From a virus, in UHGV virus genome UHGV-1346634: 12,591 nucleotides of DNA; one strand, given 5' to 3'. Made by a program: the position numbers and the translations under genes. Of the stretch, positions 141 to 6,583 are shown in pieces (within the stretch, counting starts at the first letter, position 1; each line of letters begins with the position of its first letter). The notes under the pieces are model-generated. The model was given only the letters and a program-made list of their open reading frames with translations. It did not search any database and was not told the origin of the DNA.

Positions 141-1076
141 ATGGTTTTTCAGGAATCCAATAATCGCGAAGTCGCCAGAAAATACGCAGAGTACATCACG
201 TCCGTTCCTTTGCGTCGGTTTGTCGCTGAAAAAGTGCGGGAATATTGTGGTGATCTGCCCCTGAGTATTTTTGATGGTGCGTGTGGCTCCGGGCAACTGG
301 AGCAGTTTCTCACGGTGGGAAGTCTGTATGCTGTGGATCTACAGGCCTCTCCGTTGTTGCATATCCCGGATAACTTCCCGGATGCCACAGTGAAGACGGT
401 CAATGAAAATTTCTTCAACGCCATAGATGATGTCAGTGACACGGACACGTTCGATTGTGTCATCATGAATCCGCCTTTTTCGCTACAGTACAAAGCACAG
501 AGCGCGGATATCAGGGAGAAGATTTCAGCGATGATGCCTTATAAAAAGACCTCCGGTGTTCTGGATGACGCGTTTTATGTTCTGGCGAGTATGAAGGCAA
601 GATTTTCATTTTTTTTGTGCTTTCCCGGGGTTGGTTACAGGCGTGGTGAGCTGGCAATGCGTCAGTATTTTGGCAACCGCGTTGTTGAGTTGGTTCAGAT
701 TTCAGGCGGGTTCGCTGATACATCGGTTTCTGTATTATTCGTCATTATTGATAACGAAAAGCAAAGCGATGATGTTGTTGTTTATGGCGTCGGGTTTAAT
801 GGGGAAACTTGCAAAAAGTCAGCGCCGGTGACGGAGAAGATTAACACAGAGAACTGGAACAGGCCGTACATTGCTGAAGAGAAGGTGGTCATTGACATTG
901 TACAGGTGACGGCTGAGTTGCTTGTAAGGCAAACAAGAAGACGGAAACTTGAAGATGAGCATAACGCCTTTGTGTGGTCCTTAATGAGTGATGATCAGCG
1001 GACGGAGGTTTCCCGTTTTCTGTCAGTGCACGGTTTGTTTTTTGATGCCGGTTCAGGTTGTGTGCACATACGTTAA
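141..1076 (+). CDS. SAM-dependent amino-methyltransferase, probably an orphan gamma-class N6-adenine DNA methyltransferase
   Basis: 311-aa ORF with ATG start. SAM-binding motif I-like IFDGACGSGQ (aa 43-52) precedes the catalytic motif NPPF (nt 468-479, in CVIMNPPFS); that order is the gamma-class arrangement. No nuclease partner is adjacent. A DNA substrate is inferred from phage context; an rRNA or protein methyltransferase with NPPF cannot be excluded without a profile search. Confidence 0.6.
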   Translation: MVFQESNNREVARKYAEYITSVPLRRFVAEKVREYCGDLPLSIFDGACGSGQLEQFLTVGSLYAVDLQASPLLHIPDNFPDATVKTVNENFFNAIDDVSDTDTFDCVIMNPPFSLQYKAQSADIREKISAMMPYKKTSGVLDDAFYVLASMKARFSFFLCFPGVGYRRGELAMRQYFGNRVVELVQISGGFADTSVSVLFVIIDNEKQSDDVVVYGVGFNGETCKKSAPVTEKINTENWNRPYIAEEKVVIDIVQVTAELLVRQTRRRKLEDEHNAFVWSLMSDDQRTEVSRFLSVHGLFFDAGSGCVHIR

Positions 1077-1083
1077 ATCTGAG

Positions 1084-1139
1084 GCTGGTCGCTGGTCGCT
1101 GGTCGCTGGTCGCTGGTCGCTGGTCGCTGGTCGCCGGTG
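1084..1139. repeat. Tandem heptanucleotide repeat, (GCTGGTC) x7 plus one degenerate unit GCCGGTG
   Basis: Seven perfect contiguous GCTGGTC units at 1084-1132 and a degenerate unit at 1133-1139, starting 8 nt after the methyltransferase stop codon. Confidence 0.95.
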
Positions 1140-1181
1140 TCGTGATGGTTGTCTTCCTGTTGCCCCGAAAATTTTAAATGT

Positions 1182-1411
1182 CTCACAATTCAGGCGGTTG
1201 ACAGTTGTCTGATTTGCGGGGCGTTTGTTAAAAGAAACTGGCATGGTGAATCCCCCTGAGCGGAGGGGCATATCAGCGACAGGTGTTTGGTTACATCCCT
1301 TATCCTTTCTGTGCGGGTTCAGGTGCTGATACTGAACTCACCGGGAGGCACCCGGCACCATGCAATGGCACATAGCGCCACTCTCCAGCCCCTCTCCGGA
1401 GGGGCTTTTCT
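1182..1411 (+). repeat. Copy A of a diverged ~230-bp direct repeat with two GC-rich hairpins; candidate small-RNA or regulatory element
   Basis: Shares with copy B the blocks CTCACAATTCAG, TTTGTTAAAA, CATGGTGAATCCCCCTG.GCGGAGGGGC, CTGAACTCACCGGGAGGCACCCGGCA.CATGCAATG and ACATAGCGC.ACTC.CAGCCCCTCTCCGGAGGGGCTTT. Hairpin 1 is at about 1252-1269, hairpin 2 (terminator-like) at 1387-1406. Confidence 0.7.
1387..1411 (+). terminator. Intrinsic terminator at the 3' end of repeat copy A
   Basis: 8-bp stem AGCCCCTC / GAGGGGCT with loop TCCG, followed by TTTTCT. Confidence 0.6.
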
Positions 1412-2122: not shown

Positions 2123-4102
2123 ATGACATTTAAACACTACGATGTGGTCAGGGCGGCGTCGCCGTCAGACCTTGCGGAGCGACTGACTCAAAAACTGAAG
2201 GAGGGGTGGCAGCCATTTGGCAGTCCTGTCGCCATCACGCCTTATACCCTGATGCAGGCCATTGCGGCGGAAGGTGATGTCACCACACCTGTGGTGGTGA
2301 AGCCGTCGGATGGAGAAGGCACAGTTATCAGCACCACCAGCGAACCGGAGTATTACTTTGTTGTTGTTCTGGCGGGGCAGTCAAACTCAATGTCTTTTGG
2401 TGAAGGGCTGCCGCTGCCGGAGACATATGACCGTCCGGACCCGCGTATTAAACAGCTGGCGCGTCGCAGTACGGTGACGCCGGGTGGTGCCGCCTGTAAA
2501 TATAACGACATCATTCCGGCAGACCACTGTCTGCATGATGTGCAGGATATGAGTAACCTGAATCATCCTCATGCAGACCTGAGTAAGGGACAGTACGGTT
2601 GTGTGGGGCATGCTCTGCATGTTGCCAAAAAGCTGCTGCCGTTTATGCCTGCGAATGCGGGTATCCTTCTTGTTCCATGTGGCCGTGGCGATTCGGGATT
2701 TACTGCGGGGGCCGAGGGGGCGTTTAACGAAGCGTCGGGAGCGACCGCAGGCTCGTCCCTGTGGGGGGCGGATAAACCGCTGTATCATGACCTGGTCAGC
2801 AGAACCCGTGCGGCCCTGAAGAAAAATCCGAAGAACGTGCTGTTATCAGTGATCTGGATGCAGGGAGAAAAAGATGTCAGTTCGGGGAGACATGCAGAAC
2901 ACAATGCGCTTTTCCTTGCCATGGTAAATCAGTTCCGTACGGAACTGGCAGATGTGGCAGAGCAGTGTACTGGCGGGACAACGGCCAGCGTCCCGTGGAT
3001 TTGCGGTGATACCACGTACTACTGGAAGGAAAGGTATGCAGCGCCGTATGAGGCGGTTTACGGTGGGTATAAAGGAAAAGCTGCGCAGAATATTCACTTT
3101 GTGCCGTTGATGACGGATGAGCATGGTGTGAATGTGCCGACAAACGAGCCGTCAGAAGATCCGGACATTATCCCGGCGGGATACTATGGCGCTGCGTCAC
3201 GCACTGCCAGTAACTGGACGGCAGCCGATCGTAAAACGCACTTCAGTTCATGGGCGCGAAGAGGCCTTGTTTCAGACCGCCTGGCAGGTGCCATTTTGCA
3301 GTACGCCGGGCGGACATTATCGTTCCTTACCGGGCAGAGCGCACCGCAGTCGGGTGGTACAACGCCTGTCAGTCCGGGGACACCGGATGTTGAGAAACCG
3401 CAGGATGGCGGTGTTGCTGGTACTGGTCATGATGAGGCCGTGAGCAGTACCAGGACGGTGGCTGAATATGATGCGAACAGTGGAAATGGTGCATTGACAG
3501 AGCAGCAGTGGGGCGCTTCCGGCGGCAAAGGCACTGTGACTGATGACGGTGGACGGAAAGCGCTGCGACTGGAAAAACAGCCCGGTAAACTGACGTCCTG
3601 GAAAATGTTCCGTACTATTGCAGTGGAGGAGGCAAAAAATCTTCTCAGCAAGGGGGGGGAAATTGCCGTACGGTTCAAAATTCCGGATGGAAGCGAGCTG
3701 GTGAACGGACAGTTTGTCTTTGGTATCTACTGGCCGGTGTCGCAGTGGGCGTCAGGCGCGACAGCAAACAGTATGCTGGCATCATTCTTCCTTCAGACGG
3801 ATACATCAAATCTTAATCTGATGCACCAGAAGGGCTCCTCGAATGCACAACTGGGTACATTTGGTACGTTTGACCATAACTGGCATACGGTTGTTTTCCG
3901 CTTTGCGGGAAATAACAGCGAAAGAGTTGTTCCGGTGATTGATGGTGCAGAGCAGACGGCATTTGACCTTGTGATGTGGACAAATGATGGCTTTACAGCA
4001 GATACGCTGACGCTGACAGATATCACGGGGGCAAAAGCGACGTATCCGGTACTGCTTGATACGGTCACAGTCAAAGTTAACGAAAGCCGGGCATCATCAT
4101 AA
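2123..4102 (+). CDS. nanS-p: Prophage sialate 9-O-acetylesterase (NanS-p type)
   Basis: 659-aa ORF with RBS GGGAGG 4 nt before the ATG. SGNH-esterase motif LAGQSN (in VVVLAGQSNSM) and a DUF1737-like N-terminus. Size and position match the large esterase ORF downstream of stx in 933W-type phages (from memory). Confidence 0.8.
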   Translation: MTFKHYDVVRAASPSDLAERLTQKLKEGWQPFGSPVAITPYTLMQAIAAEGDVTTPVVVKPSDGEGTVISTTSEPEYYFVVVLAGQSNSMSFGEGLPLPETYDRPDPRIKQLARRSTVTPGGAACKYNDIIPADHCLHDVQDMSNLNHPHADLSKGQYGCVGHALHVAKKLLPFMPANAGILLVPCGRGDSGFTAGAEGAFNEASGATAGSSLWGADKPLYHDLVSRTRAALKKNPKNVLLSVIWMQGEKDVSSGRHAEHNALFLAMVNQFRTELADVAEQCTGGTTASVPWICGDTTYYWKERYAAPYEAVYGGYKGKAAQNIHFVPLMTDEHGVNVPTNEPSEDPDIIPAGYYGAASRTASNWTAADRKTHFSSWARRGLVSDRLAGAILQYAGRTLSFLTGQSAPQSGGTTPVSPGTPDVEKPQDGGVAGTGHDEAVSSTRTVAEYDANSGNGALTEQQWGASGGKGTVTDDGGRKALRLEKQPGKLTSWKMFRTIAVEEAKNLLSKGGEIAVRFKIPDGSELVNGQFVFGIYWPVSQWASGATANSMLASFFLQTDTSNLNLMHQKGSSNAQLGTFGTFDHNWHTVVFRFAGNNSERVVPVIDGAEQTAFDLVMWTNDGFTADTLTLTDITGAKATYPVLLDTVTVKVNESRASS

Positions 4103-6049: not shown

Positions 6050-6583
6050 ATGAACGCAAAAATCAAATACGGCCTGTCAGCTGCTGTTCTGGCGCTGATT
6101 GCCGCAGGGGCTTCTGCGCCTGAAATCCTCGACCAGTTTCTGGATGAAAAAGAAGGTAACCACACCACGGCATACCGTGATGGTGCGGGTATCTGGACCA
6201 TCTGCCGTGGAGCCACCCGGGTGGATGGTAAGCCTGTGATTCCTGGCATGAAGCTGTCGAAGGAAAAATGCGACCGGGTTAACGCTATCGAACGGGATAA
6301 GGCGCTGGCATGGGTGGCGAAAAACATCAGAGTGCCACTGACCGAACCTCAGAAAGCGGGTATTGCGTCATTCTGCCCGTATAACATTGGCCCCGGTAAG
6401 TGTTTCCCGTCGACGTTTTATAAACGAATTAATGCAGGCGATCGCAGAGGAGCGTGTGAAGCGATTCGCTGGTGGATTAAGGACGGTGGCAGAGACTGCC
6501 GTATCCGCTCAAATAATTGTTACGGTCAGGTATCCCGGCGTGATCAGGAGAGTGCGCTGGCATGCTGGGGTATCGACAGGTAG
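6050..6583 (+). CDS. R: SAR endolysin (phage lysozyme, P21 R-type)
   Basis: 177 aa. N-terminal Gly/Ala-rich weakly hydrophobic signal-anchor-release segment GLSAAVLALIAAGASA. Catalytic E-x8-D-x5-T triad within EGNHTTAYRDGAGIWT. Matches the P21 R lysozyme pattern. Confidence 0.85.
   Translation: MNAKIKYGLSAAVLALIAAGASAPEILDQFLDEKEGNHTTAYRDGAGIWTICRGATRVDGKPVIPGMKLSKEKCDRVNAIERDKALAWVAKNIRVPLTEPQKAGIASFCPYNIGPGKCFPSTFYKRINAGDRRGACEAIRWWIKDGGRDCRIRSNNCYGQVSRRDQESALACWGIDR

Follow-up and report, generated by a model that had tools for sequence, protein, structure and literature searches.

The tandem array of GCTGGTC heptamers that follows a DNA methyltransferase gene in the late region of a prophage is very probably a hypermutable 7-bp VNTR, generated by replication slippage in non-coding DNA between the cargo methyltransferase and the STnc100 module. 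The first-pass annotation had marked the array as a slipped-strand mispairing site whose copy number should be compared over related prophages; the comparison returned alleles with 0, 3, 5, 6 or 7 perfect units, as expected from that proposal. No evidence for a recombination or a regulatory function of the array was found, and from these missing signals its length appears to be selectively neutral. In what follows, the window denotes the whole stretch of DNA that was analysed, 12,591 nt in length.

The heptamer array and its surroundings

The window derives from a lambdoid, Stx-phage-like E. coli prophage, of which it represents the late region; all the features listed in this section lie on the + strand. 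It begins with the 3' part of a 5'-truncated tRNA gene (1–52), detected by Rfam (tRNA, 38 bits) and missed by ARAGORN. This is the last gene of the Ile-Arg-Arg tRNA cluster located downstream of Q in related prophages, and the homologous position is annotated as tRNA-Arg in the loci L001–L003. A terminator-like hairpin follows at 69–88 (terminator scan), and then a 311-aa SAM-dependent DNA methyltransferase ORF (141–1076, TAA at 1074–1076), recognised from the ORF list, from PF02384 and from its RefSeq homologues. The match to PF02384 (N6_Mtase) is weak, 22.3 bits for a cut-off of 20.4, and the RefSeq homologues bear the names SAM-dependent DNA methyltransferase or type I R-M subunit M. Beyond the stop codon come a 7-nt spacer, ATCTGAG (1077–1083; sequence and alignments), the variable repeat core of seven perfect GCTGGTC units (1084–1132; TRF and allele table) and a degenerate eighth unit, GCCGGTG (1133–1139; sequence and alleles). 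The array is embedded in the decayed 3'-end remnant of a DUF3927 (PF13064) gene (1079–1177; flank survey, MAFFT and local alignment). Further downstream are the start of a conserved module (CCCCGAAAATTTTAAATGTCTCACAATTCAG..., 1163–1211; BLAST and IMG/VR motif), two copies of the STnc100 sRNA (RF02076), the first at 1212–1417 (Rfam 139.7 bits, terminator-like hairpin at 1387–1406) and the second at 1695–1905 (Rfam 167.2 bits, terminator-like hairpin at 1875–1894), and a NanS-p-type sialate O-acetylesterase gene (2123–4102) composed, according to Pfam, of DUF1737, SASA and DUF6645. On the 3' side of the esterase gene lie lysis genes, an antirepressor gene and terminase genes (ORF list, Pfam).

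Seven perfect tandem copies had been claimed in the first-pass annotation, and these are indeed present, followed by the degenerate GCCGGTG unit; Tandem Repeats Finder delimits the repeat to 1084–1138, with a period of 7, 7.9 copies, 97% matches and a score of 103. The distance of 8 nt given there for the separation from the methyltransferase stop holds in the sense that 7 nt (ATCTGAG) intervene and the array starts at the eighth base. Its corollary, that a change in copy number leaves the methyltransferase frame intact, is likewise borne out, since the array starts 7 nt past the stop codon. Elsewhere in the window GCTGGTC is found only four times, each time as a single copy, so that seven head-to-tail copies are far beyond chance.

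Scanning for promoter-like or terminator-like sites in the array or adjoining it gave none, and from the methyltransferase stop up to the STnc100 terminator (1387–1406) the scan detected no terminator-like site either. The array is probably transcribed only passively, either as the 3' UTR of the methyltransferase or as part of the Q-antiterminated late transcript. DNA folding of the array revealed no significant structure; at the RNA level the region is predicted to form a hairpin made mostly of G-U pairs, which with z = -1.8 is not significantly better than those of shuffled sequences.

The conserved module that starts at about 1163 precedes STnc100 in thousands of E. coli prophages. BLAST matches in genomes without the methyltransferase begin at window positions 1162–1174, and the module motif is present in at least 120 IMG/VR contigs; the methyltransferase cassette together with the remnant is thereby bounded on its right at ~1163. 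The sequence ahead of the module varies by prophage and comprises tRNA terminators, intact DUF3927 genes or other cassettes. Because unrelated sequence precedes the module in thousands of prophages, the array is not part of it; the array, which ends at 1139, also lies outside both Rfam STnc100 matches (1212–1417 and 1695–1905). STnc100 is described as a prophage sRNA related to PasD and typically adjoining an esterase gene (bioRxiv 10.64898/2026.05.13.724894). Both copies in the window are located between the methyltransferase and the esterase gene and end in the same hairpin, AGCCCCTCTCCGGAGGGGCT, and a third terminator-like hairpin stands between them (1600–1623). Within copy 1, at ~1364–1388 and just upstream of the sRNA terminator hairpin, a patch of ~25 nt that includes a 3-nt indel is substituted in the window and in L142 relative to L134–L141 and L143, loci to which they are otherwise near-identical; it looks like a swapped variable segment of STnc100.

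A change in copy number may, as the first-pass annotation suggested, act on the 3' UTR or on the distance to elements downstream. One possible reading of this arrangement is a contingency or tuning element, in which the copy number would set how long the 3' UTR of the methyltransferase is or how it folds, or else the distance from upstream DNA to the STnc100 promoter, and thereby modulate, in a heritable and reversible manner, methyltransferase mRNA stability or sRNA output. The unit length, which is not a multiple of three, the variability of the array between loci, the distance of 73 nt that separates it from STnc100 copy 1 as delimited by Rfam and the ability of its RNA to form a long G-U-rich hairpin are all compatible with such a role, but the fold is not significant (z = -1.8), the array lies past the stop codon and neither across it nor next to it is there a promoter-like pair of hexamers. 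Moreover, the STnc100 module (~1163) works behind unrelated upstream sequence in thousands of prophages, and 30 of the 44 loci that carry the cassette are without the array. We therefore regard a tuning element as distinctly unlikely.

The methyltransferase itself is cargo in a slot that holds TerB-like and DUF3927 genes in other prophages. In the locus L144 (ENA ERZ27287602, contig k141_1676) a 78%-identical methyltransferase is found directly after a Q-like antiterminator gene, and downstream of it a terminator of its own is followed by the beginning of a DUF1737-type gene, with neither remnant nor array. Relatives of the methyltransferase at 78% and 60% are the proteins P0002 and P0003. These arrangements suggest that the methyltransferase is a mobile cargo gene placed in different late-region backbones.

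Copy-number alleles among related prophages

The window's own lineage was reached by an exact look-up of the methyltransferase protein, which is present on 19 public contigs (10 loci retrieved), and further loci were added via three other methyltransferase variants of the same 90% protein cluster, the allele comparison covering 44 related loci. The methyltransferase protein variants P0121, P0122 and P0123 are indexed in more than 2,300 contig blocks. The array is absent from 30 of the 44 loci carrying the cassette (L001–L009 and 21 others). These have no perfect unit and read GT GCCGGTC GCTGGTT GCCGGTG, that is, an unexpanded state of three dissimilar units (GCCGGTC, GCTGGTT and GCCGGTG), which is invariant over all 30. 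Three units, in the form (GCTGGTC)3 GCTGGTT GCCGGTG, are found in L152 (and in 20 similar places) and in L155; five units, (GCTGGTC)5 GCTGGTT GCCGGTG, in seven loci (and in seven similar places); and six units, (GCTGGTC)6 GCTGGTT GCCGGTG, in L137 (two samples). The allele with seven units, (GCTGGTC)7 GCCGGTG, is that of the window and of the metagenome contigs L141–L143. Carriers include GCA_012646865.1 (five units), GCA_021277625.1 (six units) and 2012EL-2448 (unexpanded). The terminal GCCGGTG unit is unchanged in every allele, the unexpanded one included, whereas the spacer at 1077–1083 reads ATCTGGT in the unexpanded alleles and ATCTGAG in the window. Two further candidate roles for the array, as target sites of the methyltransferase and as iterons for a DNA-binding protein, were dropped, since most carriers of the same methyltransferase are without it.

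Comparing the flanks of the loci with 3, 5, 6 or 7 units reveals 0–1 differences per 940 nt on the left and none per 780 nt on the right; in L153, the unexpanded locus that comes closest to them, there are 1–2 differences in the left flank and 3 in the right one. Between L137 and L134, one extra unit is the sole difference across 1060 + 1500 nt. Because the alleles differ amid near-identical flanks, copy number changes faster than point mutation, and the length changes come in whole 7-nt steps that touch no conserved ORF and no recognisable promoter. Change by whole units that outpaces substitution is the expected behaviour of slipped-strand mispairing in simple sequence repeats, and slipped-strand mispairing during replication is presumably the mechanism at work here. 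In principle, a small number of old events within clonal lineages could have given rise to the alleles; the near-zero divergence of the flanks among the 3-, 5-, 6- and 7-unit alleles speaks against this.

An assembly or sequencing artefact has also to be considered, as this part of the prophage is repeated and is often a point at which assemblies from short reads break, and many of the contigs carrying the methyltransferase are shorter than 5 kb. However, an identical array of seven plus one units is present in three independent metagenome contigs (L141–L143) and is therefore no assembly artefact of the window, and versions with 3, 5 or 6 units occur in many independent genome assemblies, including the 4.3-Mb chromosome-scale record GCA_021461535.1 (L152, three units). 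We accordingly attach next to no probability to an artefact.

The distribution of the alleles was followed in several databases. The methyltransferase junction occurs in 12 of 5426 complete E. coli genomes, at 97–98% identity and only as the unexpanded allele, which was read directly in 3 of the 12 and deduced from identical match spans in the other 9. All 12 genomes are 35 nt shorter at the array, and one lacks 6 nt more, within the CDS. The left-flank pattern retrieved six contigs from IMG/VR, with the unexpanded form only, and gave no match in species-representative genomes, and a search of the phage collection, distant mode included, yielded no relative of the methyltransferase plus array. 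The pattern GCTGGTCGCCGGTGTCGTGATG recovered only three unrelated high-GC coding sequences in genome or metagenome contigs, which encode LLVAGVVM-type membrane segments, and none in IMG/VR. In E. coli strain 48 (L001, NZ_CP166879.1) there are three separate matches to window positions 600–1200, corresponding to the 3' half of the methyltransferase and the junction, and another place covers most of the window; this genome may carry several related prophages with the methyltransferase cassette.

The DUF3927 remnant and the resemblance to Chi

In order to describe the DNA in which the array lies, the 130 nt upstream of the conserved pre-STnc100 motif (TTTTAAATnnCTCACAATTCAG) were surveyed in about 130 loci. 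What many prophages have at this position is the 3' end of a 54-aa ORF, VTVKMRLAVVALLLFLVVMVDFSSRIMSVLADGVLVAGVVVVAFPLLKKKASGD, the start of which overlaps the stop of a TerB-like 167-aa gene. The 54-aa protein matches DUF3927 (PF13064) with E = 4.7e-20, and a second intact neighbour does so with E = 3.1e-16 (Pfam). In L077, L107, L052, L044 and similar loci, the cargo slot between tRNA and STnc100 is occupied by the TerB-like 167-aa gene together with the overlapping 54-aa gene for a DUF3927 two-helix membrane protein.

The DNA from the methyltransferase stop to the conserved module aligns (MAFFT) with the last transmembrane codons of DUF3927. The intact gene reads GTG CTG GTG GCG GGT GTG GTG GTT GTT GCT TTC CCG TTG CTG AAA (V L V A G V V V V A F P L L K), the unexpanded remnant TCG CTG GTT GCC GGT GTC GTG ATG ATT GTC TTC CTG TTG CCC CGA AAA (S L V A G V V M I V F L L P R K). 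In the window, the tail of the remnant (1133–1177) reads AGVVMVVFLLPRKF*, and intact genes read VAGVVVVAFPLLKKK... at this place. The local alignment of remnant and intact gene has a score of 29, which 1 shuffle in 2000 reaches, the shuffled sequences scoring 15.9 +/- 2.9. The homology spans about 50 nt, with 76% ungapped identity over 38 nt, and is accompanied by positional correspondence, the match sitting exactly at the 3' end of DUF3927 and adjoining the same downstream module; with a second DUF3927 allele, that of L052, which is more divergent, the alignment is not significant alone. Only the last ~30 codon-equivalents of the gene are left, without a start codon, and a 43-nt deletion visible in the MAFFT alignment took out the region of the original DUF3927 stop. 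Searching the remnant peptides against PF13064 gave no DUF3927 match, even at E <= 10. Based on the homology at the 3' end, the identical downstream module, the lack of a start codon and the lack of a Pfam match, the array is located, as judged from sequence, in a pseudogene stub of DUF3927 that is truncated where the methyltransferase cassette joins. Where other prophages have the TerB-like gene and the 5' portion of DUF3927, the cassette is now found, and it would have replaced them. In unexpanded alleles of the L002 type, the tail of the remnant (IWCRSLVAGVVMIVFLLPRKF*) is in the frame of the methyltransferase with only the TAA stop between them, a relation that 35 extra nucleotides break in the window; the shared frame is probably a coincidence, expected with a 1-in-3 chance.

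The birth of the array could then be envisaged as follows. Truncation of DUF3927 at the junction with the methyltransferase cassette would have left a quasi-periodic stretch coding for Gly, Ala, Val and Leu, in which three imperfect 7-mers were contained. In one sublineage, the substitutions GTGCC -> AGGCT would have turned the first of these units into GCTGGTC, slippage would then have yielded the alleles with 3, 5 and 6 units, and in the window's allele GCTGGTT would also have changed to GCTGGTC, giving seven perfect units.

The array might on the other hand encode a repeat peptide, (AGRWSLV)n, as part of a small phase-variable ORF, for which 988–1212 (+), 1058–1177 (+, starting with TTG) and 1053–1271 (-) are the candidates. 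Although ORFs of 37–74 aa do cross the array on both strands, and the hydrophobic tail of the DUF3927 remnant forms the end of one frame, no Pfam match was obtained for the array-crossing ORFs, their frames and lengths shift between alleles and no such ORF is kept in the unexpanded allele. Besides, the + strand ORFs start within the methyltransferase gene, no Shine-Dalgarno-like sequence suitably spaced from the TTG at 1058 is seen by eye, and the region is a truncated pseudogene, all of which makes a repeat peptide exceedingly improbable.

The first-pass annotation had further described the array as a run of near-Chi sequences. The single mismatch stands: the array consists of seven overlapping octamers GCTGGTCG, each of which departs from Chi (GCTGGTGG) at position 7 only. 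The recombination role that this resemblance had called to mind is unsupported, the resemblance being explained by descent from DUF3927. Indeed, intact DUF3927 genes contain a true Chi, GCTGGTGG, on the late-gene strand at their Leu-Val-Ala codons, (V)-L-V-A, and this Chi aligns with the GCTGGTT unit of the unexpanded allele and with the last GCTGGTC unit of the window. Position 7 of the ancestral Chi is T in the unexpanded allele and in those with 3–6 units, and C in the window's allele. As a true Chi is found in the intact gene where the two align, the array appears to have inherited its near-Chi character, and its sequence would be an already inactivated relic of the true Chi in the Leu-Val-Ala codons.

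The exact Chi octamer is missing from the array, and in the window true Chi is found only at 2334 (-), 6468 (+) and 7815 (+). Three true Chi in the 12.6-kb window compare with about 0.64 expected from shuffles, and 8 of 200 shuffles reach three. Octamers with one mismatch to Chi number 35 in the window, 13.6 being expected, and 28 of them are outside the array; they lie mostly on the late-gene strand.

Could seven such octamers nevertheless add up to a weak, cumulative Chi-like signal, by which RecBCD coming in at the packaging end of phage DNA would be attenuated or recombination stimulated? The late-gene strand carries the array, with the lysis and terminase genes downstream of it. In a lambda-like genome, Chi is active when RecBCD that has entered at the right end meets it from its 3' side, and many lambdoid phages have numerous Chi sites in that active orientation (PMC12315714). 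According to this right-end rule the orientation of the array would be the active one, provided that the right end is the packaging end of this phage. The single mismatch per octamer also points in this direction, as do three independent cassette junctions, each of them no more than about 35 nt away from the Chi of the intact gene. However, all known mutations that create or inactivate Chi fall inside the octamer, which is absent here in its exact form, and one single-base change of Chi (GTTGGTGG) lowered the hotspot activity from 14.1 to 2.1 (PMC5041463); for GCTGGTCG, a full-text literature search found no published activity. True Chi sites on the same strand as the array, those at 6468 and 7815, come between it and the terminase genes, and RecBCD having acted at one Chi ignores later ones (PMC5041463). 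Since, in addition, the sequence is explained by codon descent, 28 other one-mismatch octamers exist in the window and most relatives have no array, a Chi-like signal is to be considered highly improbable.

The three independent junctions at which DUF3927 is truncated within about 35 nt of its Chi are that of the methyltransferase cassette (window 1077–1100), that of a cassette with a 65-aa ORF and a terminator (L013/L026-type) and the L019 junction. Their clustering near Chi could be due to chance, to selection keeping the downstream module or to Chi-linked module exchange. A wider proposal would make the array a selected, reversible tuning device, in which the copy number would determine either a G-U-rich hairpin, located in the 3' UTR of the methyltransferase or in the late transcript and acting on the output of the methyltransferase or of the STnc100/PasD-type sRNA, or else how strongly a cluster of degenerate Chi sequences, by adding up, modulates RecBCD while phage DNA is replicated or packaged. 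We hold this to be very unlikely; if it were true, the clustering of junctions around the ancestral Chi would reflect Chi-linked module exchange. A lesson can also be drawn from the Chi resemblance, namely that near-Chi strings in E. coli DNA often represent CTG-GTG codon usage or ancestry and not function.

Comparison with known systems

In phasevarions, a repeat located within an ORF or in a promoter spacer switches expression on and off. The array shares with them a unit that is not a multiple of three and that adjoins a DNA methyltransferase gene on a mobile element. In contrast to phasevarions, it begins 7 nt past the stop codon, overlaps no promoter and is crossed by no conserved ORF. 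A switch of this type was ruled out, because an array that lies after the stop codon and has no overlapping promoter-like site cannot work as a phasevarion.

With a Chi hotspot the array has in common seven of the eight bases and a genuine Chi at the aligned position of intact DUF3927, and its strand is the one that would be active in a lambda-like genome; it differs by the C at position 7 (T in the unexpanded allele), the defining octamer being absent. As for the DUF3927 genes, the remnant occupies the same place directly upstream of the STnc100 module, retains about 76% nucleotide identity in the last transmembrane codons, and its frame still gives LVAGVVM(V/I)VFLLPRKF. Unlike the intact genes, it has no start codon, has lost 43 nt including the original stop, and is disrupted in its remaining part by the array.

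The prophage occurs in E. coli isolates, several of them Shiga-toxin-producing, and the array could serve as a fine-scale typing marker that separates genomes otherwise identical over kilobases. In addition, the array will confuse short-read assembly and annotation at the methyltransferase junction. It makes no open biological question testable. It offers a clean, small example of microsatellite birth, from leftover codons of a truncated gene through a few substitutions to slippage.

The closest counterparts are the VNTR or simple sequence repeat loci of bacteria, which vary by slipped-strand mispairing and on which MLVA typing of pathogens such as E. coli O157 is based. A full-text search of the searchable literature found no paper that contains the sequence of the array. 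As in VNTR loci, a short perfect unit is repeated head to tail, near-identical genomes differ by whole units, imperfect low-copy versions are stable and perfect multi-copy versions variable, and the repeat is intergenic, here in a prophage. It is unlike them in that its origin can be traced to a truncated gene remnant. Thus, the array is an ordinary hypermutable VNTR in non-coding prophage DNA, at a previously undescribed locus.
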